Positions 13,033 to 43,190 of a stretch of 43,996 nt of DNA are shown piece after piece. A model generated the notes under the pieces. That model had not been told where the DNA came from. It saw only the letters and a program-made list of their open reading frames with translations, and made no database searches. The translations under genes were made by a program, and so were the position numbers. The first letter of the stretch is position 1, and each line of letters opens with the position of its first letter. Source of the stretch: a virus; the IMG/VR virus record IMGVR_UViG_3300010362_000006, positions 1 through 43,996 of that record. One strand, written 5' to 3'.

Positions 13033-13033
13033 C

Positions 13034-13402: not shown

Positions 13403-13404
13403 GG

Positions 13405-13772: not shown

Positions 13773-13773
13773 G

Positions 13774-14025
13774 CTACATCACACGTTCGGCCTTCGCTTT
13801 TTTCGTCGGCGCCAAGTCGGTCGGCCGTGGTGCATCGACGCCCGCGACCAGGATGCGGGGACGATCCGCGAGCAGGAGGATTGCGCTCGCATCGCTGACG
13901 TCGCCGAACGTTTTGGCGACGAGCTCGAGCGCCTTTGCCTTGTTCGCCGCCATCACCAGGACGACGGCGGGGGCGCAGTGCGGGCGCCGAATGCGATACA
14001 GGTTCATTGCTGTTCGTTTTTTCAT
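13774..14025 (-). CDS. Hypothetical protein, 83 aa
   Basis: ATG preceded by GGGAGGG; follows the amidotransferase gene. Confidence 0.5.
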   Translation of the reverse strand: MKKRTAMNLYRIRRPHCAPAVVLVMAANKAKALELVAKTFGDVSDASAILLLADRPRILVAGVDAPRPTDLAPTKKAKAERVM

Positions 14026-14659: not shown

Positions 14660-14717
14660 GGTCCGTATCCTCTCGACTCGAAAAAAATTGCGGTGGAGTT
14701 CAGGTGCGACGGGCGCC

Positions 14718-15605
14718 CTAGAGGGCGTCCGTCTCGGTGCTGTCGGCCTCGACCATCGGTCCGTCGTACTTGCTCGCCATCTGTCGGAGTTTCGCGTAGA
14801 GGCGCGGCAGCGACGCGCGATCGAACACGCCGTAGGCTTTCTTGTCGCCGTTCGCCCACCACCCGAGGTGATTGATCAAGCGACGCACGGCCTGCGCGCC
14901 ATCGCCGATGCCCTCTTTCGCTTGACGCTTGGACGCGGGCGCATCCCACGGCAGCGGCGCGCTGGAGTCACACGCCTTCTGCACGATGCCGAGGCAGATT
15001 TGAATGTAGGCCGCAATCTTCGTCGCGTTGAGAGTGCCCGCGAACACGCGGAACTCGACGGTCTGGCGACGGCCCTCTGCGAGGTTTTGCAGGTTCAGCA
15101 CGTGATAACGGCTCTGGTGCGATCGCGCGATCTGATTCAGGTTCGACAGGTCCGCGAGTGCGCGATACGCCGCTTTAATCGACGCGCAATACATGTTGTG
15201 TTCGCGGGACCGGGTGCCGGTCGTCGCGAAGAGTGCTTTTTCGTGATAGGCGACGAAGCAGATCAGGCGACGAAGTTGCTGCGCAGAGCCGTTGAAGCCG
15301 ACGTGGACGTGGAACCCGGTGGAGCGGTTCACGCTGGCGCCAATCTCCACGAGTTTCGCGATCATGCGCGTTGCTTCGGCGAGGCCTTCGGCGCCGCGGA
15401 GGATTGGCGAGACGACCTCGCAGGCAACGCGCGGATATTGCACGTGGACGCTGGAATCGCTCATCAATTTCCAGCCGGGGAATCCCGCCATTTCGGCGCC
15501 GACGTGGTAGGCGCCGACGTGCCAGCCGTTCGCGTCCAGTGCCGTGCCCGGAATGCCGCACTCGATTTCGATGCCGAACGTCATGTTGCTCAGTTCCGTT
15601 GCCAT
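14718..15605 (-). CDS. Amidoligase (Amidoligase_2, glutamine-synthetase-like fold), 295 aa
   Basis: FGIEIECG, W..MSDSS...CEVVSP, STGFHVHVG, RYHVLNL, TVEFRVFAGTLN; start trimmed to ATG 15605 with AAGGGAG SD. Confidence 0.8.
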   Translation of the reverse strand: MATELSNMTFGIEIECGIPGTALDANGWHVGAYHVGAEMAGFPGWKLMSDSSVHVQYPRVACEVVSPILRGAEGLAEATRMIAKLVEIGASVNRSTGFHVHVGFNGSAQQLRRLICFVAYHEKALFATTGTRSREHNMYCASIKAAYRALADLSNLNQIARSHQSRYHVLNLQNLAEGRRQTVEFRVFAGTLNATKIAAYIQICLGIVQKACDSSAPLPWDAPASKRQAKEGIGDGAQAVRRLINHLGWWANGDKKAYGVFDRASLPRLYAKLRQMASKYDGPMVEADSTETDAL

Positions 15606-20052: not shown

Positions 20053-21717
20053 TTGCATCCGATCGATGCGTATGCGCGTGCGGTGATCAGCGGCGAACGA
20101 CCAGCAGGCAAATACCACCGACTCGCCTGTGAGCGGCACGAACGCGATCGGGCGCGACAGTGGACGCCCGACTTTCCGTACGTCCTGGTCTACAAACTCG
20201 CGGATCGCTTCGTCCGCTTCACGCAACAGCTCAAGCATTACAAGGGCGAATGGGCCGGACGGCGCATCGTACTCGAGGCGCACCAACTGTTTCGCCTCGG
20301 CTCCGTGATCGCCTGGGTCCATCGCGACACGGGACTCCGTCGCTTCCGTACCGCCTACAACGAACTGCCGAGGAAGAATGGGAAGTCGCTCGAGGCCGCG
20401 ACGATTGCGTTGTACATCTCGTTTTTCGATGGCGAACCCGGTGCCGAAGGCTATTGCATCGCGACGAAGCGCGACCAGGCGAAGATCGTGTTCAACGACG
20501 CCAAGCGGTTGACGGAATCGAGCGCGCCACTCCGATCGCGATTGTCGGTGCTCGCGGCCAACCTGCATCACTACGAGAGCGCCTCGAAGCTCGAGCCACT
20601 CGGCGCTGACTACGACTCCACCGATGGCCTCAACCCGAATCTCATCATCACGGATGAGTTTCACGCGCAAAAGAATCGCGACCTGCTCGACGTCATGGAG
20701 ACGGCGACTGGTGCGCGCCGTCAACCGCTCAATTTTCAGATCACCACCGCGGGCAATGACCCGGTCTCGCCCTGCGGCGACCAGCACGACTACGCCTGCA
20801 AAATCCTCGACCAGGTGATTGTTGACGAGACGTTCTTCGCCTTCATCGCCCACGCCGAACCAACCGACGACTGGATGGCGGAAGCGACCTGGCGGAAAGC
20901 GAATCCCAATTACGGCGTGTCGGTGAAGCCGGACGATCTGCTCGCGCTCGCCACTAAAGCCCGCAACATGGAGGCGGCGACGGCCGCGTTCAAACAAAAA
21001 CGGCTGAACTTGTGGGTCAACGCGGTCTTGCCGTGGCTGGCCCTCGATGGCTGGCGCCTCGGGCAATCGGCGTGGACCCTTGAGGACATGGCGGGCGCGG
21101 CCTGCTGGATTGGCATCGACCTCAGTTCAAAAATTGACTTGACAGCCGCCGTGGTGGTGTTTCCGCCGACCGACGAGCGCGAGACCTGGCGCCTGTGGGT
21201 GTGGGCGCTCACGCCGGCGGACACCCTCGAGCAGCGCGAACGGCGCGACCGCGCACCCTACGCGCAATGGGTCAAAGAGGGTTATCTCAGCACCAACCCC
21301 GGCAATCGCATTGACCAGGGCGCCGTGCTCGAGTTCGTGCAGCGGATGTCGGCACACTTCGACGTGCAGCGCATTGGGGTGGACCCGTGGAATGCGGGCA
21401 ATCTTGTGCAGGCGCTCACCGACGACGGCTTTCAGGTGGTGGAGATTCCGCAAACGATGGCGCAGATGAGTGCGCCCTCGAAAGACTTCGAGGCCGACGT
21501 GCTCGACGGGCTCGTCGACGCGGCGCACAACCCACTGATGCAGTGGTGCGTCAGCAACGTCGTCGTGCAACGCGATGGGAAGGACAATATTTACCCGATT
21601 AAGAAAAAGAGCCGTGGCAGAATTGACCCGGTGATCGCTACGCTCATGGGCCGTAAGCTCGCCGCGATCGATCTCGCCGTGCCGCTCGCGGGCGAACCCG
21701 ATCTGGTGGTCGCATGA
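20053..21717 (+). CDS. Terminase large subunit, 554 aa (TTG start)
   Basis: Size, position and ATPase/nuclease-like blocks (ELPRKNGKS, LIITDEFH, GIDLS...DLTA). Confidence 0.88.
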   Translation: MHPIDAYARAVISGERPAGKYHRLACERHERDRARQWTPDFPYVLVYKLADRFVRFTQQLKHYKGEWAGRRIVLEAHQLFRLGSVIAWVHRDTGLRRFRTAYNELPRKNGKSLEAATIALYISFFDGEPGAEGYCIATKRDQAKIVFNDAKRLTESSAPLRSRLSVLAANLHHYESASKLEPLGADYDSTDGLNPNLIITDEFHAQKNRDLLDVMETATGARRQPLNFQITTAGNDPVSPCGDQHDYACKILDQVIVDETFFAFIAHAEPTDDWMAEATWRKANPNYGVSVKPDDLLALATKARNMEAATAAFKQKRLNLWVNAVLPWLALDGWRLGQSAWTLEDMAGAACWIGIDLSSKIDLTAAVVVFPPTDERETWRLWVWALTPADTLEQRERRDRAPYAQWVKEGYLSTNPGNRIDQGAVLEFVQRMSAHFDVQRIGVDPWNAGNLVQALTDDGFQVVEIPQTMAQMSAPSKDFEADVLDGLVDAAHNPLMQWCVSNVVVQRDGKDNIYPIKKKSRGRIDPVIATLMGRKLAAIDLAVPLAGEPDLVVA

Positions 21718-21932: not shown

Positions 21933-22154
21933 GTGACGTGGTGGTGGCGACCGCCTTGTCTGTTGCGGGCGGTGATCGTCAATCTCAAAGACGATCCAAC
22001 GACAGCGATTAAGGGCGTGCTGTGGTCCTCACGGGGACCGTGGCTCACGCTCTCTTCAGCGGCACTGCTGAAGCCCTCCCTCCCACCGACGCCGATCGAC
22101 GGCGACGTAATCGTGCATCGCGACAACGTGTCGTTTGTGCAGGTCTTGCCCTGA
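21933..22154 (+). CDS. Small conserved-looking protein preceding the portal gene, 73 aa
   Basis: TGATG coupling to the portal start. Confidence 0.45.
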   Translation: MTWWWRPPCLLRAVIVNLKDDPTTAIKGVLWSSRGPWLTLSSAALLKPSLPPTPIDGDVIVHRDNVSFVQVLP

Positions 22155-23641
22155 TGCCGGTGGTTCAGAGTTTCGGCCAACTGCAATCGCTGATCGAGAC
22201 GCGCCCGCCGTACTACACGGTGAGCACGACGCAGCGCGCGGTCCCGCTGTACGGCGAGAGTCGCAGCTTCGCCCAACTCTATGCGACGCAGCCGAACATC
22301 CGCATTTGCGTCGACTTCCTCGCGCGCAACATCGCACAGCTCGGTCTCCACTGGTTCCGCCGCGTCTCGGATACCGATCGCATTCGCCTGGTCGACCACG
22401 ACTGCGCGCGCTGGCTGGAGAAACCGAATCCCACGACGACGCGCTATCGCCTGATCGAAAGTTTGATCGGCGACCTGGGCGTGTACTTCAACGCCTTCTG
22501 GTTGAAGATTCGCTACCGCGACGCCGACGGCGCCGACCAAATCGGCCTCGCGCGTCTCCCGCCTGAAGAAATGTCCGTCGAGGGCGGACTGCTCCCGCGT
22601 CAATTCATCTGGACCTATTTTGGCGAACAGCAACCGCTGCCGCTCAGCGACGTGATCTACTTCAACGGCTACACGGCGACGAATGCGCTGATGGGCCTCT
22701 CGCCGCTCGAGACACTCCGACAGATCCTCGCGGAGGAACAAGCCGCGAGCGAACATCGCCAGTCGTACTGGCAGAACGCCTCACGCATCGACGGCGTCAT
22801 CGAACGTCCGCTGGCTGCACCACGCTGGCAGGCGACGCAGAAAAAAGAATGGCGCGAACAGTGGCAGGAACGCTTCTCGGGCGGCGCCGGCGCCGGGCTC
22901 GTCGCGGTCCTCGAAGACGGGATGACGTTCAAAGCGGCGTCGTTCTCGCCGAAGGATTCTGAATATCTCGGCGCGCGGAAACTCTCGCGCGAGGAATGCG
23001 CCGCGGCCTACCACATTCCGCTGCCGATGGTCGGCATCCTCGAGCACGCCACGTTCTCCAACATCAAGGAACAGCACAAACAGCTCTACCAGGACACGCT
23101 TGGGCCGTGGCTCGAAATGATCACGCAGGAACTCGAGCGCCAACTGCTCGTGGAGTCCACCGATCAAACCAACGTCTATGCGGAGTTCAACATCGCCGAC
23201 AAAATGAAAGGCAGCTTCGAGGAACAAGCCACCGCGCTCAACATGCTGGTCGGGCGCCCGGTGATGACGGCCAACGAAGCGCGCGCCCGCCTGAACCTCC
23301 CCCGCGTCGACGATCCCACCGCGGACCAGCTCGCCGCGCAACAGGGCGGGCCGAGTAATAACGCCGCGAACCCTCAGGCCGACCAGGCGCCGCAGGACAG
23401 CACGGCGGCGATCGCCGCGGTCATCACCGCCAACCAGGACCGCCAACGGGCGCGTCTCGAGAAGGTGCCCGTGGCCGATCGCCCGGCCGCTTTCCACCGA
23501 CATCGCGACCGCTACACCCGCGAGCTCGCGGACGACCTCACCCCGCTCGTGGAGTCACGCGAGACCGCCTGGCAGCTCGCACTCACCACCAACGCCGCGA
23601 TGCTCGCCTCGCTCGAAGCCGACGCACTCCCGACGCACTAA
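22154..23641 (+). CDS. Portal protein (HK97 family), 495 aa
   Basis: Position after terL, size, and SFAQLYATQPNIRICVDFLARNIAQL-type N-terminus. Confidence 0.85.
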   Translation: MPVVQSFGQLQSLIETRPPYYTVSTTQRAVPLYGESRSFAQLYATQPNIRICVDFLARNIAQLGLHWFRRVSDTDRIRLVDHDCARWLEKPNPTTTRYRLIESLIGDLGVYFNAFWLKIRYRDADGADQIGLARLPPEEMSVEGGLLPRQFIWTYFGEQQPLPLSDVIYFNGYTATNALMGLSPLETLRQILAEEQAASEHRQSYWQNASRIDGVIERPLAAPRWQATQKKEWREQWQERFSGGAGAGLVAVLEDGMTFKAASFSPKDSEYLGARKLSREECAAAYHIPLPMVGILEHATFSNIKEQHKQLYQDTLGPWLEMITQELERQLLVESTDQTNVYAEFNIADKMKGSFEEQATALNMLVGRPVMTANEARARLNLPRVDDPTADQLAAQQGGPSNNAANPQADQAPQDSTAAIAAVITANQDRQRARLEKVPVADRPAAFHRHRDRYTRELADDLTPLVESRETAWQLALTTNAAMLASLEADALPTH

Positions 23642-25024: not shown

Positions 25025-26302
25025 ATGAATATCGCGCAACTCGAATCTGATCTGAAAGCCAAGCAGACCGCGGCAAAGGCCCTGCTCGAGCAAACGATGC
25101 AGAAGTGCCAAGACCACGTCGTGACCCCCGCCACCGACAAGACGTCGGAAGTCAAAGGCCGTCTGATGACCGCTGAGGAAAAAGCGGCGATTCAGGCGCT
25201 CTTGGACGAAGCGAAAGGCATCAAGGCGCGGCTCGATGGCGTGACCAACGACGCCAACATGATGGCCGAGATCGATCGCCTGACGAGCAACCTGCCCGAC
25301 CGGAACACCATCGCCGGTCAACGCAAGCTGCTCTCGATCGGCCAACAGTTCGTGAACAACCCGGAGTATCGCAAGTTCATCGAACGGCAAGGGCACCGCA
25401 GCTCGAGTGCGTGGAATGCGCCCGCGACGGACACCGTCATGCCGTGGCAGGCGACGACGCTCACCGAGGACCCGGCCTCGGGCGGCAAACTGATTCTCCC
25501 CGACGTGCAACCGGGGATTCTGTTTCTGCTCTTCAAACGCCTCGTCGTCGCGGACCTCATCGCGCCCGGCACGACCACGAGCAACATGATCCAGTTCATG
25601 AAGGAAACGACCTTCACGAACGCCGCGGCGGCGGTGGCCGAAGGCGGCACGAAGCCCGAGTCCGCGCTCGTCTTCGACAGCGCGACCAGCCCGGTGCAGA
25701 AGATCGCGCACTGGATTCCGGTGACGGAGGAAATGCTCGAGGACTTCGCGCAGACGCAATCGATCATCGACTCGCGGCTGCGGCTCGGGCTCGCGCTCAC
25801 GGAGGAAGATCAACTCCTGAATGGCAGCGGCACGCCGCCGAACCTGAAAGGGTTCATGAACCTGACCGGTCTCGCGACGCCCGTCGCGCGCGGCACCGAC
25901 ACGAACATGGACGCGATCTTCAAACAGATGACGGCGCTCGCCACGACGTCGTTCGTCACGCCCGACGGGTTCATCATCAACCCGACCAACTGGCAGACCT
26001 GCCAACTCTCGAAAGACGCGCAGGGCCAGTACGTCGGCGGCGGGCCGTTCACCACGGCGCAGACGCCGACGATGTGGGGTATCCCCGGCGCGGTCACGCC
26101 ATCCATCGTCGCGGGCACGTCGCTCGTGGGCGCGTTCCGATCGGCCGCACAACTCTTCCGTCGCGGCGGGGTCCGCGTCGAAGCGAGCAACAGCCACCAG
26201 GATTTTTTCATCAAGAACCTCGTGGCGATTCGCGCCGAGGAACGGCTCGCGCTGGTGGTCTACCGCGAAGGGGCGTTCGGCAAGGTGACGGGTCTCAACT
26301 AA
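25025..26302 (+). CDS. Major capsid protein, HK97 fold, with N-terminal coiled-coil delta domain, 425 aa
   Basis: Position, size and coiled N-terminus. Confidence 0.88.
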   Translation: MNIAQLESDLKAKQTAAKALLEQTMQKCQDHVVTPATDKTSEVKGRLMTAEEKAAIQALLDEAKGIKARLDGVTNDANMMAEIDRLTSNLPDRNTIAGQRKLLSIGQQFVNNPEYRKFIERQGHRSSSAWNAPATDTVMPWQATTLTEDPASGGKLILPDVQPGILFLLFKRLVVADLIAPGTTTSNMIQFMKETTFTNAAAAVAEGGTKPESALVFDSATSPVQKIAHWIPVTEEMLEDFAQTQSIIDSRLRLGLALTEEDQLLNGSGTPPNLKGFMNLTGLATPVARGTDTNMDAIFKQMTALATTSFVTPDGFIINPTNWQTCQLSKDAQGQYVGGGPFTTAQTPTMWGIPGAVTPSIVAGTSLVGAFRSAAQLFRRGGVRVEASNSHQDFFIKNLVAIRAEERLALVVYREGAFGKVTGLN

Positions 26303-31832: not shown

Positions 31833-31957
31833 CCATCTGTCGCTTCATGGGCGGGTGGAAATTCGAGTGGGCCGGACAACTTCCGGCTGACGTGTACGAC
31901 GCCGTCGTCGCGATGATGCACGACGCCGCTCAACAGCGAGAACCGGAACCGGAATGA
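31446..31957 (+). CDS. gpGT-like frameshift fusion (31446..31796 joined to 31796..31957 by a -1 shift)
   Basis: The extension ...RPGYVEGIRSDLAICRFMGGWKFEWAGQLPADVYDAVVAMMHDAAQQREPEPE ends overlapping the tape-measure ATG. Confidence 0.65.
31790..31796 (+). promoter_or_regulatory. -1 programmed frameshift heptamer A_AAA_AAA
   Basis: GAA AAA AAA G in the zero frame; the -1 frame stays open from 31796 to TGA 31955-31957. Confidence 0.7.
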
Positions 31958-34900
31958 TCAGCGGGAAATTTCAGGCCGACTTCTCGTCCTTTGAAGAGGC
32001 CGTGAAAAAAGCCATCGTCACGCTCAAGAGCTTGTCGGATAACGCCGACAAGGTCCCGGCGGCGATGACCCGTATCGGCAATTCGCTGACCGGCACCAAG
32101 CTGATTCAGGACGCGACGATGATGGCGCAGTCCGTCGAACGGCTCGGCGGCGTCTCGATCCTCACCGAAAAGGAACTCGCGAAACTCGGCGGGCAAGCCC
32201 AAGAAGCGGCCGAGAAAATGAAGCTGCTCGGCATCGACGTCCCGAAAAATTTGCAGGCGATCGCCGACGCGGCGACGGCGGCGGCGAAGCCGATCGCCGA
32301 CGTGGGCAAAGCGGCGACGGACTCGCAGACAGCGCTCGGCGGCATCGGCGCCTCGTTCACGAATCTCGTCGCGGGCGTCGCGACCGGGGAACTCATCGCG
32401 GACGTCTTCAAAAAAATCGGCGAAGAACTCCTGCAACTCGGCATCCACGCGGCGGAAGTGTTGCCGATGATGGTCGAGCACGCGATCGAAGTGGGCAACT
32501 CGCTCTTTGAAATGTCCCTGAAGACGGGCGCCTCGGTCGAGAACCTCTCGAAGTTGCGGTTCGTCGCGAGTCAGACGGGCATCGACTTCCAGTCCTTCGG
32601 CACCACGCTCTTCAAGATGGAGCAGAACCTCGACGCGACCGGCAAAAAAGGTGACACGTTGGGGGGGAAGTTGGCCGCGATCGGGCTCAACCTGCGCGAT
32701 CTGAAGAACAGCAAACCGGACGACGCCTTCATCACCATCATGTCCGCGATGGAGAAGATGTCGAGTCGCGCGGAACAGGCGAGCCTCGGCGTCGCGCTCT
32801 TCGGCAAGGGCTTCAAGGACATGGCGGGCCTGACGCAGGAGTCCATTAAAGACCTGATGAAAGAAGCCGAGGACCTCGGCCTCGTCATGAGCACGCAGGA
32901 CGCGGCGGCGGCACACGCCGCGGAGGTCGGTTGGAAGAAATTCCAGATGCAGCTCGAAGCCGCGAGCATGAGCATCGGCAACGTGTTCGTCCCCGCGGTC
33001 ACGACGGCACTGAACCTCCTGAGCGAAGGATTCACGGAGGCGATGAAGAACACCGGGGTCAGCACGAAAGACTTGCAAGAGATTCTGAAGAGCGTCACGA
33101 CTGACATCGCGTTCTTCCTGGCCGACCTCGTGAAGGTCGCCGCGTATGTCGGCGACGCGCTCGCGCAGGCCTTCAGCGGACAGATTCTCGAACAGTTGGG
33201 CCTGCTCGATTTCATCGCGCGGGTCGGCGCGAAACTGATCGGCCTCGGCGAAATTGCCGCGACGATTACCGGCAACGCGTTCCTACTCAACACGCTCGAA
33301 GACCTGCGAGGGAAGTTCGACACCGTCGGCAAAAAGACAGAAGAGTACGCCGGAAAAGTCGCCGAACTCGCCGGTGCCTTGCACACGCTCGAGCAGGGCG
33401 CGCAGGGTGCCGCGAACAATCTGAAAGCGGGGTGGGACGCGGCCCTGAAGAAGACCGAGGACCAGATCAAGCACTTCGCGGAGACGAGTCACAAAGCCTT
33501 CGGCGGCGCCGGCGAGGACACCGAGTCCTTCGGCGAGAAAAACAAGAAAGCGACGAAGGACCTCGAGAGTCTCGAGAAAGAACTCTACAAGGTCGAACGG
33601 CAAGGCTACCAGGACTCCGTCGCGATGCAGGTCATGAACGCCGAACTGCTGAAATTCGGCAAGGGCGACGAGTCCGTGCAACAGCTCGGGAAGGCGCTCG
33701 AGCAGCTCCCGATCACGGTCGCGAAACTCAACGCCGAACTCGACAAGACGCCACAGAAGCTCTCCGCGATCGCGAACATCCTGCCGCAGGACACGTCGGG
33801 CTTTTTCCTGCCGTCACGACAGACGGTGCCGACGATCCAGACGCTCGGCCAGGGCGCCTACGCCGAACCCGCGGGACTTGAGATCGGCAAGGACTTCTCG
33901 AAAGGATTTGAAACCGGCATCGCGAAGATGCCCGACGCCATCCTCCGCGCGCTCGAAGGCGGCGGCAACGTCTTCGCCGCGGCGGCGGGCACCATCGGAC
34001 AGAGTATCGGCGAGTCCCTTCAGAAAAATTTGAATGACACCATCCTCAAAAATGCGAGTGGGGTGACTGGGTCCCTACTGAAAGGATTCTCAGCCGCGTT
34101 GCCCGCGATTGGCGCACTCGCCGGGCCATTGGTCGACGCCTTGTTTGGCATCGGCGGACCCTCGAAAGCGGAACTCGCCGGACGCGATGCCGTCGCGAGT
34201 TTTGAAAAAGGGTTTGGCAGCGCCGAAAAGATGATCAACGCGGTGGGCGCCGCCTACGTGGCCGAAGGCAAGACCGTCGAGGAAGCACAGAAGGACATCA
34301 AGGCGATGTGGGCCGCGGAGAAACAAGGCGCGGACGCCACCACCGCCGCGGTGCGAAAACTTCAGGACGCGCTCGCACAGCAGCAAAAACTGCAACAAGG
34401 CGCCGCGCAATTCGGCCCCTCGAAAACGGAGCTCGAGCAGATGGCGAAGGACGCGAAGGACGTCTACGACTTCATGCTCGCGCAGGGGACGTACACCGCC
34501 GACCAGCTCGCCGCCGCGTTCAAGGCGTCACAGGAAGCGCAAGCTGCCGCCCTCGGCATCAACACCGAGGCGACGAAGAAACACCTGGACGAAATGCAGA
34601 AAGGCCTCGAAGACCTGATGTCCCGGCGCGATGCGCTCTGGACGCAGGTCTCGCAGGAAGCGCCCGAGGAAGTGATGGGCGTGATCGAAACCGCACAGCG
34701 CGCGCAGCTCGGTGTCCTCGATGATCAGATCGCCGCGCAAAAGAAAGCGATCGAGAAAGAAGCCGACGATGCGGCGGCGGCGCTCGAGGCCGCACTCAAT
34801 CAAATCACGCCCGACGCGATTCATGTGCCGGTCGTCTTCGACTGGACGAACGCGCAGGATATGCCGAGTCACGGGCAACCGCAGCCCTACCCTGGCCCCG

Positions 34901-35112
34901 CGATTCCGATGGCGCGCGGCGGCGATTTCCTCGTCACCAAACCGACGTTGTTCCTCGCGGGCGAGGCGGGACCCGAACGCGCCACCTTCTCGCCAAGCAC
35001 ACGCGACAGCGATGTGAGCCGCCAGCTCGCGCAGCTCACCCGCGCGATGAACCGTCTGCCTCGCACTATCAGCCGCGCCGTGACCGATGGCCTCGTCGGG
35101 ATCACGGGCTAA
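31954..35112 (+). CDS. Tape measure protein, 1052 aa
   Basis: Length, helical Ala/Lys/Glu-rich composition, position. Confidence 0.9.
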   Translation: MISGKFQADFSSFEEAVKKAIVTLKSLSDNADKVPAAMTRIGNSLTGTKLIQDATMMAQSVERLGGVSILTEKELAKLGGQAQEAAEKMKLLGIDVPKNLQAIADAATAAAKPIADVGKAATDSQTALGGIGASFTNLVAGVATGELIADVFKKIGEELLQLGIHAAEVLPMMVEHAIEVGNSLFEMSLKTGASVENLSKLRFVASQTGIDFQSFGTTLFKMEQNLDATGKKGDTLGGKLAAIGLNLRDLKNSKPDDAFITIMSAMEKMSSRAEQASLGVALFGKGFKDMAGLTQESIKDLMKEAEDLGLVMSTQDAAAAHAAEVGWKKFQMQLEAASMSIGNVFVPAVTTALNLLSEGFTEAMKNTGVSTKDLQEILKSVTTDIAFFLADLVKVAAYVGDALAQAFSGQILEQLGLLDFIARVGAKLIGLGEIAATITGNAFLLNTLEDLRGKFDTVGKKTEEYAGKVAELAGALHTLEQGAQGAANNLKAGWDAALKKTEDQIKHFAETSHKAFGGAGEDTESFGEKNKKATKDLESLEKELYKVERQGYQDSVAMQVMNAELLKFGKGDESVQQLGKALEQLPITVAKLNAELDKTPQKLSAIANILPQDTSGFFLPSRQTVPTIQTLGQGAYAEPAGLEIGKDFSKGFETGIAKMPDAILRALEGGGNVFAAAAGTIGQSIGESLQKNLNDTILKNASGVTGSLLKGFSAALPAIGALAGPLVDALFGIGGPSKAELAGRDAVASFEKGFGSAEKMINAVGAAYVAEGKTVEEAQKDIKAMWAAEKQGADATTAAVRKLQDALAQQQKLQQGAAQFGPSKTELEQMAKDAKDVYDFMLAQGTYTADQLAAAFKASQEAQAAALGINTEATKKHLDEMQKGLEDLMSRRDALWTQVSQEAPEEVMGVIETAQRAQLGVLDDQIAAQKKAIEKEADDAAAALEAALNQITPDAIHVPVVFDWTNAQDMPSHGQPQPYPGPAIPMARGGDFLVTKPTLFLAGEAGPERATFSPSTRDSDVSRQLAQLTRAMNRLPRTISRAVTDGLVGITG

Positions 35113-35136: not shown

Positions 35137-35553
35137 ATGGCTTCTTTTGTGACGAATGAGGGCGCGAACGGCTTGGCGAACGGCACGATCACCTGGGCGA
35201 GCGACACGATCAAAGCGCGTCTCGTCGCCTCGTCGGTCACGCCCAACAAAGACGATACGACGATGACGCCCTACACGGTGATCGGCACGGACCAGACGCT
35301 CGCCTCGAAAACGCGCACGAAGAACACCACGGATGATCGCATCGACTTTTCGTCAGCGGCGATCACCTGGGCAGCGGTCGCGGCGGGCAGTACCGTGGGG
35401 TATGTCGTCATTTTCAAATTCGTGACGAACGATGCGGGTTCGACGCCGATCGCGGTGATCGACGTGACCGACGTGCCGACCAATGGCAGCGATCTCACGT
35501 ACACGCCGCCGACGGTCGGATCGGCGGCGGCGCTGTTCTCGTTGCAGGAGTAA
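35137..35553 (+). CDS. Hypothetical tail protein, 138 aa
   Basis: AAAGGAGGG SD; Thr/Ala/Val-rich beta-type sequence. Confidence 0.55.
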   Translation: MASFVTNEGANGLANGTITWASDTIKARLVASSVTPNKDDTTMTPYTVIGTDQTLASKTRTKNTTDDRIDFSSAAITWAAVAAGSTVGYVVIFKFVTNDAGSTPIAVIDVTDVPTNGSDLTYTPPTVGSAAALFSLQE

Positions 35554-35575
35554 ACCGGACGCGAGCCAAACGGTT

Positions 35576-38500
35576 ATGTTTGATGCTGCGTGGTTCGAGC
35601 GGTGGCAGTGGCTCTTACTGCTCATCCTCGAGGAACCGATCCTCGGCCGGTGGTTCCGGTGGCTGCTGTGCATTCGTCCGCACGATGTCGGCTATCGCGG
35701 GCGCATCGTCCGGCTACTCCCCCACGCCTACGTCGTCGCGAATAACGACGGCACCTTCACCGCCGATTTTCGGACGCACGATAAATTTGCCAAGCGGCTC
35801 TATTACGGTTTGCGTCCGTTCTGGCGCGCGTGTCACCTATGGGATCTGGCGATCGCGAATCGCTTCCGGCCGGCGTGGAATCTCGGCTTCGATACCTTAG
35901 GCCCCCTCTATCCTGACGCCGGATCGGGCGCCACGACCGTCGACGGGCGCGTGGAGAATTCGCCAGGCGGCAACGTGTCCTGGGCGACGATCATCGCCGG
36001 CGCGGGCACGACCGCTGAAGTGGTCTCGACGCACAACGCGTCGGTGGGCTGGCAAGACGGCACTGTCAGCAACACGTTCTCGAGCCTCTGGCGGGGCATC
36101 TCGACCTACAACACCGCGGCGCTCGGCACGGGCGCGGTGATCTCGACCGCGACGCTCTCGTTTTTCGGCAGCGGCCAGAGTAACGACGGATCCAATCCCA
36201 ATTTCAATGTGTACGGCGCCACGCCCGCCTCGAATAATGCCCTCGTCGCGGCGGACTTCACGCAAGTCGGCAGCACGGCGTTCAGCACGGCCATCAATGT
36301 CACGGCGTGGAGCACCTCCGGCTACAACGACTTCCTCCTCAACGCCAACGGCCTCGCGAACATCAACAAGAGCGGGATCAGTCGGTTCGGGGAGCGCAAC
36401 GCGAATTACGACGTCGCGGCGGTGGCGCCGTCGTGGTCGACCTCGGGGAATCTGATCTTCATCGAGCACTGGAACGCCGATCAAACCGGCACGGCGAACG
36501 ATCCGAAACTTGTCGTCACCTTCACCCCGACGGTCGTCGTCACCGCTAAAGGCACCTTCGCCACCAAATCGAATACCGATCCGATCCTGAGCAGCATCTC
36601 GGTCCCCAACGGTGAGACGTTGATCGTCTCGCTCTTCGCTGGCAACGACAACGCCAACTCGCGCCGCATGCAGTTCAACGGCAACGAGATGACGAAAGAC
36701 GTCAACGTCGAGGGACTCTTTGCGAACGCCAACACCTATCTGAGCGTCTTTCGCTGGCTCAATAACACCGGCAGTACGGTCACCGGGAACCTCCGCTATC
36801 TCACCTCCACCGGCACGGCACTCACAGGGGTGGGCATCGCGGGCACGGCTAATTCGCTCACGAATCTCGACACGACCAGTCCCTTCGATCAGCATTCGAC
36901 GACGGATTCGGCCGGCGCGACGAGCGCGGACTCCGGTAACACCGGCACGACCACGGCAGCGGCCGAGATCCTGATCGGCTTTCTCTGCACCCGAGGTCCC
37001 AACACGGATGCGGCCGGGACGTGGGGCGGTGATACCGCCACCAGCGGGCAACGCGGCGGGACGACTGGCGGATCAGCCAATTCCAACTACACCGTCTACG
37101 ACGCGAACGGCGCGCAATCGGCGACGGGTGTGCGCCATGCGGCGGTCACCGGGCTCTCTGCTGGCCGCGCCTACACCCTCGGGATCGTCACCTACAAACA
37201 GGCGAGCAGTGGCGCTGCGCTCAGCGGTGGACCCGCGACCGCGAGTTGGGCGATTACCGCCGCGACGCTCGTCGCTTCGGGTGCGGTCGCGCTCAGCGGC
37301 ACGAAACCCGTCGCTACCTGGGCGATCACCGCCGCCTCGTTTGCGGCGCCGCAAGCGTTGAGCGGCGGACCGGCGACGGCGACATGGACCGCGACGGCCG
37401 CCACGATCGCGAAAGGTCCGGTCGCGCTGAGTGGCGGTCCCGCAGCGGCGACGTGGGCGATCACCGCCGCGACCCTCAGTGGCGCGACCGCGCTCACCGG
37501 GACCAAGCCGGTCGCGACGTGGACGGCGACGGCCGCGACGCTCACGGCCTCGGGCAGCGGCGCAATTGGCGGCGTGCCGGTCGTCGCGACGTGGACGGCC
37601 ACCCCCGCCGCGCTGACGAAGGGATCGGTGGCCCTCACCGCCGCCACGCCCGCGATCGCGACCTGGACGAGCACGCCGGCGGTGCTGCGCGGCACCGGCG
37701 CGGCCACGCTCGCCGGAGTATCGGTCAGTGCCACGTGGGCGATCACGATCGGCAGTCTCGCCCCGCCGCCGCCGCCCATCGCCTCGATCTTTCTCGAAAT
37801 GGAATTTTCGGGACGCGGCAACGGGTGGACCGAGGTCAAAGATTGGCGACTCGCCGACGGTCTGCGATGGGATCGCGGGCTCCCCGGCAACGGCGTCGCC
37901 GATTGCATCGCCGACACGGGCACGCTGAATTTCGTGCTCAACAACGCGATCACGAACAGCGTGCATCTCATCGGCTACTACAGCCCCGATCACGCGAACT
38001 GTCGCGCAGGCTTTCAACTGATGATCGGCGTGCGCGTCCGCATCACGATCGGCGCGGCCGAGTACGTGCGGTTCACCGGCTATCTCGATTACATCAACCC
38101 GCAGCCGGGCATGCACCAGAATTTCGGCGTCGACTGCGAAGCGATCGGCTGGATGGGGCTCGCCGCGCGCACCCGCCTCGGCGACCTGCCGATTCTGCTC
38201 GACGCGTCGGGGGATGACGTCTTTCAGACGATCATTGATTCGCTGCCGACGTTCTCGCAGCCGCGAGCGATTGAGAAGGATCTCAGCGCCGACGTGTACC
38301 CGTACATCCTCGATCGGATTCGCGATGAAGAGACGCACGCGAACGACGAACTCTACCGCCTGGCGCTGAGTGGCCTGGATCGGATTTGGGAGCGCGGCAA
38401 CGGCACGCTCGTCTATGAGAGTCGCACGCGACGCGCCACGCGCACCGCCGACATCGACACCTTCCCCGACACGCACGGCTTCGGGGCGCCGCGGACCGCC

Positions 38501-39898
38501 GACACCGTCGCGAACTCCACGCAGACGACCGTGCATCCGCGCTTGCCGAGTGCCGTCAGCAACGCCGTGCTCTTTAGTCTCAACCAACCGATGCAGCTCG
38601 CCGTCGGTCAGCCGGTCGACGTGCTCGGGACGTGGACGGACCCGACCAATCCCGACGTGCGCGTCGGCGCGGTCAGTCTCGTGTCGCTCGTCAGCGGCAC
38701 CGACTACGTGGCGAACAGCGCCCAGGACGGCAGCGGGATCGACCTCACCGCGGCGCTCACCGTCGCGGTCGGGCTCTCGGGCAACGCGACGGCCTTCACG
38801 GTCACGCTCGGCGGCTCGACCCCTGGCTGGCTCACCAAACTCCAACAACGCGGGCGCGCGCTGCTCGATTACGGCGATGTGCAGGCGATGCAGAAAGATC
38901 AAGGCAGCATCGACCGGTTCGGGCTCAATCCGCTGAACGTCGACATGCCCTATCAGGCCGACCCGAATTTCGGCATCGAAGTCGGGCAGTACATCATCTT
39001 CACGCGGGCGCAACCGCTCACGCAGGTCGAGGCCTTCCGGCGCGTGATCGGCATGAAGAACAGCCCCGAACTGGCCCGCAGTCTCGCGCGGGAAGTCAGC
39101 GATCGCATCGGCATCACCGAACCCGTGACGGGCGTGCAGAAATCGTTTTTCATTGAACGCATCAGCGAAACGATCTACGCCACGCACGTCGAAACCGAAT
39201 GGACCCTGTCACTGCCGATCGACGGGCGCCAGTTCTGGCAGCTCGAGGTCGTCGGCCGCGGCGAACTCGACATCAACACGCGGCTCGGCTTCGGACTCAT
39301 CGTCGGCCACACCGATGTTCACCACGCCGACTTCCACGGCGATAGCCTCCACAGCGACAGCGCGCACGTGGATACGCATACCGACGATTTGCACCAGGAC
39401 CAGTTGCACGGCGATGGGAGCACGCACGGCGACACCGCCCACAGCGATACGCAGCACAGCGATCGCGCGCACACGGACGTCGCCCATCTCGATGAGCACG
39501 CGGATGATCCCTTCGAGGATCACACCGATAACAGTCATAGCGATGTGCAACACCTCGACGACCATTTCGACTATCACGGCGATTTCTTCGACGCCGCGCA
39601 TGGCGTGGCCTTCGGCGACCACGGCGATACGCACACCGACCAGGCGCACGGCGACGCGCACGGCGACAGCCCCCATATTGACGAGCGGCACGAGGACTTC
39701 AGTGACAGCGTGCCGCACAACGATGTCCCGCACGGCGACGTCGCCCACGTCGACATCGCCCACAACGACGCGTCGAGCCACTCCGACGTGTTGCACGCCG
39801 ACGTGTTGCACGCCGACGTCGCGCATGTCGACGTCGCGCACGGCGACGCGGCCCATGCCGACAACCACGATGACACCGCCCACGGAGACGCGAATTGA
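35576..39898 (+). CDS. Giant multidomain tail-tip protein, 1440 aa: N-terminal region of unknown type, 8 x ~23-aa repeats, Dit-like (siphovirus distal tail) domain, C-terminal HxD repeat array
   Basis: Single uninterrupted ORF; start trimmed to ATG 35576; IFLEMEFSGRGNGWTEV...FTGYLDYINPQ... resembles a distal tail protein. Confidence 0.75.
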   Translation: MFDAAWFERWQWLLLLILEEPILGRWFRWLLCIRPHDVGYRGRIVRLLPHAYVVANNDGTFTADFRTHDKFAKRLYYGLRPFWRACHLWDLAIANRFRPAWNLGFDTLGPLYPDAGSGATTVDGRVENSPGGNVSWATIIAGAGTTAEVVSTHNASVGWQDGTVSNTFSSLWRGISTYNTAALGTGAVISTATLSFFGSGQSNDGSNPNFNVYGATPASNNALVAADFTQVGSTAFSTAINVTAWSTSGYNDFLLNANGLANINKSGISRFGERNANYDVAAVAPSWSTSGNLIFIEHWNADQTGTANDPKLVVTFTPTVVVTAKGTFATKSNTDPILSSISVPNGETLIVSLFAGNDNANSRRMQFNGNEMTKDVNVEGLFANANTYLSVFRWLNNTGSTVTGNLRYLTSTGTALTGVGIAGTANSLTNLDTTSPFDQHSTTDSAGATSADSGNTGTTTAAAEILIGFLCTRGPNTDAAGTWGGDTATSGQRGGTTGGSANSNYTVYDANGAQSATGVRHAAVTGLSAGRAYTLGIVTYKQASSGAALSGGPATASWAITAATLVASGAVALSGTKPVATWAITAASFAAPQALSGGPATATWTATAATIAKGPVALSGGPAAATWAITAATLSGATALTGTKPVATWTATAATLTASGSGAIGGVPVVATWTATPAALTKGSVALTAATPAIATWTSTPAVLRGTGAATLAGVSVSATWAITIGSLAPPPPPIASIFLEMEFSGRGNGWTEVKDWRLADGLRWDRGLPGNGVADCIADTGTLNFVLNNAITNSVHLIGYYSPDHANCRAGFQLMIGVRVRITIGAAEYVRFTGYLDYINPQPGMHQNFGVDCEAIGWMGLAARTRLGDLPILLDASGDDVFQTIIDSLPTFSQPRAIEKDLSADVYPYILDRIRDEETHANDELYRLALSGLDRIWERGNGTLVYESRTRRATRTADIDTFPDTHGFGAPRTADTVANSTQTTVHPRLPSAVSNAVLFSLNQPMQLAVGQPVDVLGTWTDPTNPDVRVGAVSLVSLVSGTDYVANSAQDGSGIDLTAALTVAVGLSGNATAFTVTLGGSTPGWLTKLQQRGRALLDYGDVQAMQKDQGSIDRFGLNPLNVDMPYQADPNFGIEVGQYIIFTRAQPLTQVEAFRRVIGMKNSPELARSLAREVSDRIGITEPVTGVQKSFFIERISETIYATHVETEWTLSLPIDGRQFWQLEVVGRGELDINTRLGFGLIVGHTDVHHADFHGDSLHSDSAHVDTHTDDLHQDQLHGDGSTHGDTAHSDTQHSDRAHTDVAHLDEHADDPFEDHTDNSHSDVQHLDDHFDYHGDFFDAAHGVAFGDHGDTHTDQAHGDAHGDSPHIDERHEDFSDSVPHNDVPHGDVAHVDIAHNDASSHSDVLHADVLHADVAHVDVAHGDAAHADNHDDTAHGDAN
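37217..37760 (+). repeat. Coding tandem repeats: 8 units of ~23 aa, AL(S/T)GxxPxATW(A/T)xTAATLxxxG
   Basis: Read from the translation. Confidence 0.85.
39305..39895 (+). repeat. Coding repeat array: ~35 His-x-Asp units, mostly 5-residue period, ~197 aa
   Basis: GHTDVHHADFHGDSLHSDSAHVDTHTDDLHQDQLHGD...HSDVLHADVLHADVAHVDVAHGDAAHADNHDDTAHGDAN. Confidence 0.9.
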
Positions 39899-41202
39899 GC
39901 ATCGAACTGAATCCCGTTGGCGTGAAGTGCAATCTCCAGTGCGCGTACTGCTACGAAGATCCGATGCGGGCGGCGGGCAACTTCGCGCCCGGCTACGACC
40001 TGGCGGCGATGAAACGCGGGCTCGCCGCCGAGGGCTACCAGTTCTCGCTCTTCGGCGGCGAACCGTTGCTCATGCCAATCGCCGACCTCGAGGAGATGTG
40101 CCGGTGGGGTTTCGAGCAGTACGGCAGCACCGGGCTTCAGACGAACGGCAATCTGATCACGGAGGCGCACCTCGCGCTCTTCGCGCGCTACCACGTCGGC
40201 GTGGGCATTTCGATCGACGGTCCTGACGAACTCAACGACGTGCGCAGCGCCGGCACGCTCGAGAAGACGCGCGCCCTCACCGCTCGGAGCGAATGGGCCA
40301 TCCACGAGCTCTGCGCGCGCCACCAGGCGCCGAGTCTCATCGTGACGCTCCACCGCGGCAACGGCGTCGGGACACGACTGCATCGACTGAAGGCGTGGCT
40401 CGCCGACCTGCACGACCAGGGCGTCCGGTACGTGCGGCTGCACTTACTCGAAGTCGAATCCGCCGAAGTGCGGCGCCAGTGGGCGCTCACCGAGAACGAG
40501 AATGTCGCCGCCATGCTCGACCTCGCGCACTTTGGGCAACGGCACCCGCGTCTGCATCTTGACGTGTTCAGTGACCTCGACAAGCTCCTGCGCGGTCGAG
40601 ACAGCACGGGCGGCGGCGTCACGTGCATCTGGAACGCGTGCGATCCCTACACGACGCGCGCCGTCCGCGGCATCAACGGGCTCGGCGAGAACATCAACTG
40701 CGGGCGTACGAACAAAGACGGGGTCGATTGGCAGAAGGCCGAGACCGAAGGGTTCGAGCGACAGCTCGTGCTCTACGACACCCCGCAAGCGGACCACGGG
40801 TGTCGCGGCTGTCGGTTCTTCATCGCGTGCAAAGGGCAATGTCCCGGCACCGCGATCGACGGCGATTGGCGCAATCGCACGGAACACTGCGGCGTGTGGA
40901 TGCGCCTCTTCGACCGCGTCGAACGGGACTTGATCGCCGCGGGCGTCACGCCCGTGTCACGATCGCCGGAACTGCCCGCCCTCGAAGCGATCATGCTCAA
41001 CGCCTGGCGCGAGGGGCGCAACCTGTCGATCGAGCAGGCGATCGGCATCCTCCACGGCCATCCCGCCGACCAGGGCGCGCAGGAGCATGGCGATCACTGG
41101 GACGCGCCGGACGGCTATCACCACACGGACGCCGGGCTCGAGATCCACGGCGACGCGGGGACGACGGTGATGCACGGAGACACGCCACATGGCGACACGT
41201 AA
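39895..41202 (+). CDS. Radical SAM enzyme with complete SPASM domain (peptide/protein maturase type), 435 aa, HxD-rich C-terminal tail
   Basis: CNLQCAYC (CX3CX2C, 39928-39951), GGEPLL, QTNGN, SIDGP; SPASM C-x14-G-x4-C ... CRGCRFFIACKGQC (40801-40842) ... C; TTG start overlaps the upstream TGA, with GGAGA 6 nt upstream. Confidence 0.85.
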   Translation: MSIELNPVGVKCNLQCAYCYEDPMRAAGNFAPGYDLAAMKRGLAAEGYQFSLFGGEPLLMPIADLEEMCRWGFEQYGSTGLQTNGNLITEAHLALFARYHVGVGISIDGPDELNDVRSAGTLEKTRALTARSEWAIHELCARHQAPSLIVTLHRGNGVGTRLHRLKAWLADLHDQGVRYVRLHLLEVESAEVRRQWALTENENVAAMLDLAHFGQRHPRLHLDVFSDLDKLLRGRDSTGGGVTCIWNACDPYTTRAVRGINGLGENINCGRTNKDGVDWQKAETEGFERQLVLYDTPQADHGCRGCRFFIACKGQCPGTAIDGDWRNRTEHCGVWMRLFDRVERDLIAAGVTPVSRSPELPALEAIMLNAWREGRNLSIEQAIGILHGHPADQGAQEHGDHWDAPDGYHHTDAGLEIHGDAGTTVMHGDTPHGDT

Positions 41203-42295
41203 CGCGGAGTTCAGCCGACGGATGTGGAGTTCGGGCGCGGCCCGACACGCCTGGGAGGCGCGCATCGCGCACGCGGCCGACGCCTGGCTGCACCTCGAGG
41301 TCGCGACCGTGGTCGCGGGATTCCGCCGCGCAGGCCTCGTCTTCGGCACCCGGCACGTCCAACCGACGCGCCTGCCGATCGTCGCCGTCGCGCCCGACCG
41401 CTTCGCGATTGGTCCCGGCGCCCACGAGCTCGCGGACGCCTACGCGCGCACCGACGACGAGGCGATCGGCGCGCTGCTTGGGTTTCCGCGCTGCTGCCGC
41501 GCCTTTTTCGCCGCGACGTGGGCACAAGGTGCGGGCGATACCACCTGGCAGATGGCGACCAATGGCACCGACGGTCCGCTCGAGTGCAACATCCTCGGCC
41601 GCTGGCTCGGGCTGCGGTGGGTCATGCACCTCCCCTGTTCGTTCACGTGCCGCGCGAGCGCCGCGCTCGGCGCCGCGCACCGTACGTTGCTCGACGCGGA
41701 GGATGCCGCCACGATCGATGCGGTCTTGTCGTGGCCGATCGAATGGTCCGCCTTGCACGGCGCCGCGGAGATCCGCTACCCCGTCGTCAAGATCGTCACG
41801 CGCACCGGCTACACCACGGACAAGCGCATCGTCCAGCGACGCGGGTCCACGTACCCGCCCGAAGGGGCGCGCGGGCTGGTGTTCCCCTACTCGGCCGCGG
41901 ACATGCGGACGCCGCAGGAGAATGGCTTTCCCTCGAGCGCCACGCAGGACGCCGGCCACGCCATGATCCTCGACGCGCTCCGCAGCTCGCCGCCCCGCGG
42001 CGCCGTGCTCGACCTCGGCGCGGGCAATGGCCTGCTGATGGAACGGATCGCGTCGACGTTTCTCCGACCGGTCTACGGCATCGAAGTGGACGCGCACAAA
42101 GCGGCGAAGCATCCGGGGATTCGCTGTGGCGACCTCCGCGCCCTCGAGACGTTGGTGAATCCCGTGGACACGATCGTCGTCTCGGCACGGCGCTTCGAGG
42201 AAATCCCTGCATTGCGCGCCACCGTGGGACGGCTCGCGCGCCAGGTCCTCGTTTACTCGTACGACGACCCGCGCTTTGCGCGGATGGAGGCGTGA
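41189..42295 (+). CDS. Fusion of a Cys-rich N-terminal domain and a class I SAM methyltransferase-like C-terminal domain, 368 aa
   Basis: GFPRCCRAFF...HLPCSFTC; VLDLGAGNGLLMERI motif I; overlaps the rSAM gene by 14 nt. Confidence 0.6.
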   Translation: MATRNAEFSRRMWSSGAARHAWEARIAHAADAWLHLEVATVVAGFRRAGLVFGTRHVQPTRLPIVAVAPDRFAIGPGAHELADAYARTDDEAIGALLGFPRCCRAFFAATWAQGAGDTTWQMATNGTDGPLECNILGRWLGLRWVMHLPCSFTCRASAALGAAHRTLLDAEDAATIDAVLSWPIEWSALHGAAEIRYPVVKIVTRTGYTTDKRIVQRRGSTYPPEGARGLVFPYSAADMRTPQENGFPSSATQDAGHAMILDALRSSPPRGAVLDLGAGNGLLMERIASTFLRPVYGIEVDAHKAAKHPGIRCGDLRALETLVNPVDTIVVSARRFEEIPALRATVGRLARQVLVYSYDDPRFARMEA

Positions 42296-42687
42296 TGTTC
42301 ATCACACTGCTCGGACCCGAACAGTTCACGTTGCCTGATGGACAACGCGTGCGCTACATCTCCGACTATCTCGCTTGGCATCGCGTCAATCTCAACCCGA
42401 CCGCCCGCGGCGAACACGTCTGGAGTCCGCTGCCCGCGAGCGTCGAACATGGCCGCTGGCTCTGTCACTGCGTCTGTGGCGCGGGCCTGCTGACGCGGCC
42501 CGAACTCCCGATCGCGTGCTGCATCTGGTGCGGCAACATCTACGAACGCATCGAATTTCCGAAGCACTGGCGCGACATCGAACGCGTGCTCCTGCTGCGG
42601 CCGATGCGCGAACAGCAAAACTGGATCGGCGAATCGGTCGCGACCCTCATCGCCGAAAACGCAGAACATTCGATTGGAGTCTCGTGA
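42295..42687 (+). CDS. Zinc-ribbon protein, 130 aa
   Basis: TGATG coupling; CHCVC...CCIWC. Confidence 0.55.
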   Translation: MFITLLGPEQFTLPDGQRVRYISDYLAWHRVNLNPTARGEHVWSPLPASVEHGRWLCHCVCGAGLLTRPELPIACCIWCGNIYERIEFPKHWRDIERVLLLRPMREQQNWIGESVATLIAENAEHSIGVS

Positions 42688-43190
42688 TGGCGTGGACACT
42701 CCCGCGCACCTGGGTTCCCGGCGAGCTCGTCACGGCGTCGATGATGAACACGCAGATTCGGGACAATCTGAATTTTCTCTACTCGAATGTCGCGACGTGG
42801 ACCCCGACGGTCACTTTCGACACGCCGGGCAATTTGAGCGTCGCGTATGCGACCCAGGTCGGGACGTGGTGTCGCGCCGGCGGCTTCGTGGTGGCGCGCA
42901 TGGTGGTGATCACCTCGACGTTCACGTTCACGACGGCCTCGGGCGGGCTCCGCATTGGCGGGCTCCCGCTCCCGAACTCGTCCTCGCAGGAATCACCCGG
43001 TGGCGGTTTGCTGTGGGCGGGCATCACGAAGGCGGGCTATACGCACCTGACGCCGATGGTCGCGGGTAGTAGTTCCTCGGCCTACATCAACGCCTCGGGT
43101 TCGGGTCAAGCGGTCGCGACCATTAGCGCCCCTGACACGCCCTCGGGCGGCACACTGCGACTCAACGGCGAATTTATTTACCCCGTGTGA
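42687..43190 (+). CDS. Tail fiber / receptor-binding-like protein, 167 aa
   Basis: TGATG coupling; MAWTLPRTWVPGELVTASMMNTQIRDNLNFL is an N-terminus common in phage fibre-associated proteins. Confidence 0.5.
   Translation: MAWTLPRTWVPGELVTASMMNTQIRDNLNFLYSNVATWTPTVTFDTPGNLSVAYATQVGTWCRAGGFVVARMVVITSTFTFTTASGGLRIGGLPLPNSSSQESPGGGLLWAGITKAGYTHLTPMVAGSSSSAYINASGSGQAVATISAPDTPSGGTLRLNGEFIYPV

Follow-up and report, generated by a model that had tools for sequence, protein, structure and literature searches.

Triceptides carry bonds that join an aromatic carbon to the Cβ of the third residue (X3) of a three-residue motif, with a loss of 2 Da per motif. The documented bonds include Phe C4-Asn Cβ, Trp-Asn/Asp and Tyr C3-Asp Cβ and, for histidine, bonds from C2 to the Cβ of Ala, Arg or Lys (PMC11002830, PMC11499958). 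A His-x-Ser triad has also been documented (PMC12912966). In the described systems (XncB, OscB, MscB, YxdB, HaaB, YhhB, HtkB, ChlB and MicB), a radical S-adenosylmethionine (SAM) enzyme with a SPASM domain stands beside aromatic-x-X3 repeats. Here we describe a comparable locus in a virus, the IMG/VR record IMGVR_UViG_3300010362_000006, which was analysed over a stretch of 43,996 nucleotides (the window; positions 1 to 43,996 of the record). A large tail-tip protein of this virus ends in an array of His-x-Asp triads, and the adjacent gene encodes a radical SAM/SPASM enzyme. We propose, at a probability of roughly 0.5, that the array serves this enzyme as a substrate with many sites for radical crosslinking and is not an autonomous fold.

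Like the triceptide systems, the window encodes a radical SAM enzyme with a CxxxCxxC motif and a SPASM region, and a candidate substrate with 37 His-x-Asp triads lies directly upstream of it. Of the solved structures, ChlB is one of the nearest to the enzyme. However, the enzyme falls outside the XyeB, GrrM/OscB, FxsB, YhhB and AmcB models. In contrast to triceptide loci, no protease or exporter was found in the array module among the window genes or by Pfam and PHROG scans, and the partner is a DUF483-methyltransferase. The locus suggests that the logic of triceptides extends to virion proteins, where the enzyme clade and the partner are distinct.

The other close relative is the anaerobic sulfatase-maturating enzyme (anSME; anSMEcpe), which is the best profile and fold match of the window enzyme and, like it, has no N-terminal recognition domain. 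anSME acts on a full-length protein through Cβ hydrogen abstraction, and we propose the same for the window enzyme. The outcome would differ, as anSME oxidises one Cys/Ser in C/S-x-P/A-x-R to formylglycine, and this motif is absent from the window array. That the best enzyme matches, anSME and ChlB, modify proteins or peptides at Cβ argues for the array as a substrate.

The literature search returned no paper in which phage tail proteins are connected with triceptides or with cyclophane synthases. The sole mention of the module was a study of Thermus phages (PMC11437467, Viruses 2024), and a query for DUF483 mostly returned other DUF numbers. The "rSAM module" of phages Cumys and phiMa in that study consists of the same three genes, with an enzyme about 50% identical (46-51% across phiMa, Cumys and a third Thermus phage, phiLo). 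In phiMa and Cumys the repeats, 53-54 H-x-D triads, are on a separate 343-aa protein directly upstream of the enzyme, and a DUF483 protein lies directly downstream; the window repeats, by contrast, are fused to the tail hub. Where PMC11437467 deals with the rSAM module, it calls the first gene a protein of unknown function; the repeats go unmentioned, and the words "histidine" and "RiPP" (ribosomally synthesised and post-translationally modified peptide) appear nowhere in the paper.

An earlier note on this DNA had drawn attention to the array and read it as a five-residue repeat that may form a pentapeptide-repeat beta-helix with histidine ladders. The His/Asp strings that it quoted are present in the + frame of open reading frame (ORF) 35483-39898, and its limits for the array are exact: the array opens with G-H-T-D at 39305 and closes at the last codon (39895). 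The 197 residues include 39 His, 45 Asp and 2 Arg. Cys is absent, as the note had said, and so are Trp and Lys; its remark that aromatic residues other than His are almost lacking is roughly right, with 7 Phe and 1 Tyr. The His content is 19.8% in the array and 1.2% in the rest of the tail-tip protein. Asp stands at position +2 after 37 of the 39 His, whereas 10,000 shuffles of the same composition gave 8.9±2.3 H-x-D triads and at most 19. The triads are spaced by 5 residues 23 times, by 4 residues 8 times, by 6 residues twice, and by 8, 9 and 15 residues once each, and at most 5 five-residue units follow one another without a break. Because the spacings vary and runs of fives do not exceed five units, the five-residue repeat is merely the commonest spacing (23 of 36); the conserved unit is the triad, and the register is broken.

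The underlying DNA repeat is degenerate (Tandem Repeats Finder period 15, 75-78% matches). Selection on the array was assessed with six homologues whose arrays are 50-75% identical. Among the invariant array columns, 50 of 56 are His or Asp, and 48 of these 50 use more than one synonymous codon. By comparison, only 6 of 116 other ungapped columns are invariant. The array pattern is thus genuine, coding and selected at the protein level, and since the invariant columns are nearly all His or Asp despite synonymous turnover, the conserved object is the His-x-Asp triad.

The motif varies across the family in a restricted way. In a census of 84 non-redundant arrays (17,056 aa), the first triad position is His 2919 times, Tyr 208 times, Phe 176 times and Trp 34 times, and the spacing is 5 in 44%, 4 in 23% and 3 in 11% of cases. 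Slots flanked by motifs at both +5 and -5 hold an aromatic residue in 723 of 943 cases and Leu, Ile, Val or Met in 22. Individual arrays depart further from His-x-Asp. The L032 array (2163-3200) has a period of 5, and Phe-x-Asn/Asp accounts for 39 of its 42 Phe; the protein shares N-terminal "GSxWVEG..LHY" repeats and architecture with relatives that carry His arrays. The L068 array is His-x-Asn, and in L056 His-x-Asp alternates with Phe-x-Asn/Ser and His-Tyr-Asp. By sequence, the family-wide motif [H/F/Y/W]-x-[D/N] corresponds to the aromatic-x-X3 motif of triceptides.

We then consider the association of the array with the enzyme. A scan of viral contigs with the enzyme alignment gave 75 loci; single-sequence scans gave close relatives only and, in genome contigs, one partial Rokubacteria match (L007) with no array. 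The linkage count was limited to viral loci in which 3.5 kb or more precedes the enzyme gene, 50 once duplicates were removed, and an array was scored where at least 10 aromatic-x-[D/N] triads were present. An array on the strand of the enzyme was found in 47 of the 50 loci. It lies upstream of the enzyme in 45, and in 35 the array ORF ends no more than 40 nt from the enzyme start. The arrays of phiLo (L003) are on the strand opposite to the enzyme and were counted outside the 47. The two array proteins of this phage, on the minus strand at 12816-13964 and 14268-15389, contain 72 and 54 H-x-D triads and lie 4-7 kb from the enzyme, and IS605-type transposase fragments are immediately upstream of the enzyme gene.

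The converse search started from the array, with a back-translated DNA pattern for four H-x-D units. Stretches without an in-frame array were excluded from the count, as were perfect DNA tandem repeats that happen to read as H-x-D in one frame (L122, L167, L190 and others). Among the genuine long arrays with sufficient flanking sequence, 11 of 11 have the enzyme. Three arrays lack it, and these are perfect tandem repeats in the DNA rather than degenerate repeats of a protein. A homology search with the array alone gave 10 matches, a yield probably due to composition filtering, and these serve as examples rather than a census. Three loci (L206, L207 and L210) have homologous hubs without an array. 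Their hub cores are 52% identical, a pectate-lyase-like beta-helix replaces the array, and the radical SAM and methyltransferase genes are both absent. The modules are otherwise syntenic, with homologues of the window ORFs 42292-42687 and 42684-43190 directly following the hub. In L208 the hub is bare, and the array is on a separate 266-aa fibre with the enzyme close by. Because hubs without arrays lack the enzymes and the fibre array of L208 has one nearby, the enzyme tracks the array and not the hub. The last alternative in the earlier note, in which the array is a repetitive lattice of substrate for the enzyme next to it, is the part of its proposal that linkage and motif logic favour.

Arrays were also seen in other settings. 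Two bacterial chromosomal contigs (L012 and L013) encode, at 9035-11884, a 949-aa FAD_binding_4 protein with two arrays of H-[I/V]-D-[I/V]-P. This protein adjoins the enzyme and a 516-aa methyltransferase, which indicates that the system extends beyond phage tails. In L165, a collagen-like Gly-x-y stretch leads directly into 12 H-x-[D/N] triads (1753-1965), and no enzyme homologue was found in the 10 kb downstream of that array.

The TTG start of the enzyme gene (39895) overlaps the stop codon of the tail-tip gene. In the enzyme alignments A1 and A3, the CxxxCxxC motif is conserved and the full set of SPASM Cys, including CxxCxxxxxCxxxC, is invariant, and the SPASM segment aligns with the anSME SPASM motif. 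NCBIfam gave partial matches below cut-off to anaerobic sulfatase maturase, YhhB, AmcB, XyeB, GrrM/OscB and FxsB, and further partial matches to the QhpD-type and PapB families; the score against the anaerobic sulfatase maturase model TIGR03942 is 61.6 bits for a cut-off of 349. The closest PDB sequences are ChlB and anSME. The AlphaFold2 model has a predicted local distance difference test (pLDDT) value of 83, and the top Foldseek matches are again anSMEcpe and ChlB, over the full length and with target-normalised TM-scores of about 0.69. The family is large, with more than 2000 matches at E<=1e-20 in the clustered database and 302 clusters (50% identity) at E<=1e-30. In two homologues (P0228 and P0280) the CxxxCxxC motif is interrupted by about 340 aa that resemble an intein (C..C.YC / insertion / ..HNCYQ).

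The enzyme itself ends in a tail of H-x-D triads (41086-41196), which is modelled with low pLDDT. Such a tail occurs in 63 of 81 enzyme homologues of 400-520 aa and in none of the 34 homologues below 400 aa, and some homologues have an expanded version with over ten "PHGDHTD" units (L056, 7493-9448). The enzyme may modify this tail itself, or the tail may act as a decoy or in docking.

The third gene of the module (41189-42295) encodes a protein with a DUF483-like N-terminal domain that carries the Cys motif FPRCC...LPCSFTC. Its Pfam matches to DUF483 and to methyltransferases are weak and all under cut-off, the PHROG assignment is methyltransferase, and the PDB search gave methyltransferase matches only, none of them significant. 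A methyltransferase gene lies beside the radical SAM gene in 55 of 63 non-duplicate loci. In P0169, P0171 and P0172 the radical SAM enzyme is fused to a DUF483 domain, and a methyltransferase domain was detected in P0172, which was scanned. These fusions argue that the two proteins work together.

Pentapeptide-repeat proteins (Qnr/MfpA/Rfr type, and the SV2 luminal domain) share with the array a dominant period of five, so a right-handed quadrilateral beta-helix was weighed for its regular stretches, with His either in the core, in place of Leu/Phe, or in surface ladders. Besides the 23 five-residue spacings, Val, Thr, Ala and Ser predominate three residues past His, as at the inward i-2 position of such helices; with His taken as the centre, however, the core would be made of His. 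In the register of the earlier note the centre is mostly polar, and the core rule of a central Leu/Phe with a small residue at i-2 does not hold. The array does not form the at least eight in-phase units that make two coils, the in-register units never exceeding five. About a third of the spacings across the family are 3 or 4, and aliphatic residues, the usual core, are nearly excluded from the aromatic slot.

No Pentapeptide family was matched at E<=1 in Pfam, either by the array or by the whole protein, and NCBIfam gave nothing; the array does not reach the gathering score of PF00805, PF13576 or PF13599. No PDB sequence matched the array at E<=10, and the tail half of the protein was likewise without PDB matches. 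An AlphaFold2 model of the monomer from a 35-sequence alignment gave the array pLDDT values of 30-42 and no secondary structure; being a monomer, the model is uninformative on a trimer or on a metal-bound or modified chain. The earlier note had held that predicted disorder, no metal binding and a lack of pentapeptide hidden Markov model (HMM) signal would speak against its beta-helix; the array has no such signal, and its model as a monomer is unstructured. Unlike pentapeptide-repeat proteins, the window array is negative by HMMs, register, core-residue pattern and the monomer structure prediction, and the proposed fold is unsupported for it. A point in favour comes from a relative. The Phe-x-Asn array of L032 passes Pentapeptide_3 (57 bits, cut-off 27), Pentapeptide_4 (56 bits, cut-off 38) and the threshold of LD_SV2, the SV2 luminal-domain family, and it aligns to the SV2C beta-helix with Phe upon core Phe. 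By analogy with L032, the His of a beta-helix would sit in the core and not in the surface ladders that the note had imagined. Because L032 passes the pentapeptide HMMs, a beta-helical state stays conceivable for the most regular array stretches, although our analysis makes it improbable there, as it does the beta-helix as an account of the array in general. By the geometry of the helix, an i-to-i+2 crosslink and a pentapeptide helix are mutually exclusive at any one unit.

The 477 residues ahead of the array, modelled within a 702-aa query, have pLDDT values of about 90. Foldseek matched them in the PDB to Mu gp44, the MuSo2 43-kDa tail protein, VgrG, the 80alpha baseplate, the baseplates of phages Milano and 7-7-1, and T5 tail-tip proteins, with E values mostly between 1e-11 and 1e-7 (2e-5 for the T5 proteins). 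The predicted gp27/Mu gp44-like fold and the position just past the tape-measure gene both agree with a hub. Since this folded domain matches hub and Tal proteins, the array is predicted to project from a tail hub of the gp27 type. The C-terminal end of the hub is where a central tail fibre or spike usually emerges in known siphophages, and homologous hubs here end in other modules, e.g., a Pel9A-like beta-helix in P0156-P0160.

Hubs of the gp27 type are trimeric in known phages, and the T4 gp37 tip and P2 gpV are known as His-x-His metal needles of phage fibres and spikes. Three hub chains might be zipped round metal ions held by His and Asp, with the enzymes otherwise employed or acting as assembly aids. 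As in the needles, residues that are classic metal ligands stand at i and i+2 along a distal, trimeric tail structure and would face the same side of a strand, and the monomer model says nothing about such an assembly. However, the array differs from the needles in having tens of His-x-Asp triads that Phe-x-Asn can replace and that always come with a radical SAM enzyme, and PDB sequence searches found no similarity between the array and the needle proteins. The motif does not consist of metal ligands in all members: Phe-x-Asn (L032) and Phe/Tyr mixtures (L056) occur in the same family and operon, and Phe is no metal ligand. A metal fibre also leaves unexplained the strict coupling to the SPASM enzyme and the loss of the enzyme where the array is absent. 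We regard it as unlikely, though slightly less so than the beta-helix.

The low pLDDT and the extreme composition would also suit an unmodified, disordered, acidic and His-rich tether or entropic brush, sensitive to pH or ions, with the enzymes serving another target such as DNA. According to PMC11437467, some cyanobacteria have homologues of the radical SAM enzyme and DUF483 close to genes for deazapurine modification of DNA. Such a tail would leave unaccounted for the invariance of His and Asp at i and i+2 despite synonymous turnover, the restriction of substitutions to aromatic residues, and the joint gain and loss of array and enzymes, and the nearest relatives of the enzyme act on proteins or peptides, not on nucleic acids. 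Of the explanations weighed, we give this one the least credence.

Modification of the array by the adjacent enzyme would account for the motif and the linkage, and it can be set out in more definite terms. The array lacks Cys, which rules out thioether chemistry of the sactipeptide or ranthipeptide kind and leaves a bond joining the two conserved residues as the simplest reaction. Whereas linkage, co-variation and motif logic were observed, what follows on the bond, the task of the methyltransferase and the gain for the phage is inferred. The radical SAM enzyme would work in the cytoplasm on the still-unfolded tail-tip chain and would take a hydrogen from the Asp Cβ at each triad. This Cβ would join imidazole C2 of the His two residues upstream to give a triceptide-like, three-residue cyclophane, with up to 37 rings per tail-tip chain and, for three chains per hub, about 110 per tail tip. 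The DUF483-methyltransferase would be an obligate partner that methylates the product or handles the substrate, and the H-x-D tail of the enzyme may be modified by the enzyme itself or dock onto the substrate. A floppy, acidic array poor in Lys and Arg would in this way be stapled covalently and stiffened, and the tail tip would gain an extension that withstands protease and heat and touches the host surface.

Several points weigh against crosslinking of the array. The modification is proposed from sequence and linkage. The documented His triads are His-x-Ala, His-x-Arg, His-x-Lys and His-x-Ser, and none is His-x-Asp (PMC11002830, PMC11499958, PMC12912966). Triceptide substrates are short, leader-bearing precursors that are cleaved and released and are not structural proteins, whereas the substrate here would be a virion protein of 1440 aa (200-650 aa for the fibres of the family) with 20-90 motifs. 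The window enzyme scores 34-60 bits against the named cyclophane-synthase families, whose cut-offs are 310-450, and it is equally near anSME, which oxidises rather than crosslinks. The crosslinking does not explain what the methyltransferase would do, and PMC11437467 suggests DNA modification for the module. Three enzyme loci (L011, L020 and L074) have no array in the available sequence. Finally, the passage of the L032 variant through the pentapeptide HMMs keeps a fold-based rationale alive for regular arrays.

The window is a tailed-phage genome or prophage with 62-70% G+C, and its features are collected in Table 1. The tape-measure gene is followed by a 138-aa gene and then by the tail-tip gene, whose product has homologues P0131-P0168. 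The N-terminal extension of this protein has no match in Pfam or PHROG; homologues lack it or differ in it, and some of them bear Laminin_G_3. Within the extension, eight repeats rich in Ala, Thr and Gly span 37205-37777; each is about 22-24 aa long and contains an A-[T/S]-W triplet. No family match was found for them, and a PPPPP linker closes them just ahead of the hub domain. A tRNA-like element reported by ARAGORN in the tape-measure gene (34957-35045, minus strand) has an undefined anticodon and was judged a probable false positive. Just downstream of the module, ORF 42292-42687 encodes a 131-aa Cys-rich protein (CHCVC...CCIWC). The 168-aa product of ORF 42684-43190 begins with a sequence (W-T-L-P-R-T-W...IRDNL) that is the anchor of array fibres elsewhere, namely P0124, P0128, L059 and the L208 fibre (8865-9665).

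Table 1. Positions of the array, its enzymes and other annotated features in the window.
Feature	Position	Strand	Remarks
Terminase	20053-21717		PHROGs
Portal	22022-23641		PHROGs
Major capsid	25025-26302		PHROGs
Tape measure	31954-35112		PHROGs
Large tail-tip protein gene	35576..39898	+	1440 aa; probable ATG 35576, open frame from 35483
Variable N-terminal extension of tail-tip protein	35576..37789	+	Differs or absent in homologues
Baseplate-hub / Tal domain, predicted gp27-like fold	37790..39220	+	AlphaFold2 and Foldseek
C-terminal His-x-Asp array, 197 aa, 37 triads	39305..39895	+	Candidate multi-site substrate
Radical SAM/SPASM enzyme, 435 aa	39895..41202	+	TTG start; Pfam Radical_SAM
CxxxCxxC (C12, C16, C19), radical SAM [4Fe-4S] cluster	39928..39951	+	Conserved in alignments A1 and A3
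SPASM region	40624..40890	+	Cys 244, 249, 269, 303, 306, 312, 316, 332
Enzyme C-terminal tail, six H-x-D triads (HGDHWDAPDGYHHTD...HGD...MHGDTPHGD)	41086..41196	+	
DUF483-like domain and class I SAM-methyltransferase domain	41189..42295	+	Third module gene

More broadly, phages may build a virion part by RiPP-type radical chemistry, with tens of His-Asp or Phe-Asn cyclophanes on the ends of hubs and fibres; we put this wider proposal forward tentatively and hold it a little less firmly than the assignment of the array as a substrate. The substrate reading reinterprets a module that the literature had tied to DNA modification, and in annotation, His/Asp-rich "low-complexity" tails beside radical SAM genes should be left unmasked and taken seriously. 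The enzyme and array would form a new enzyme-substrate pair that offers tens of identical sites for protein stapling, and phiMa and Cumys, which are in culture with the same three genes, make it open to direct tests. If the wider proposal is true, it would provide the first case of a virus structural protein that an enzyme crosslinks through carbon-carbon bonds, and also the first triceptide on the scale of a protein. Three-residue cyclophane chemistry would then reach past small secreted peptides and harden structural proteins, and such stapling would be carried by phages of hot springs, soil and freshwater.

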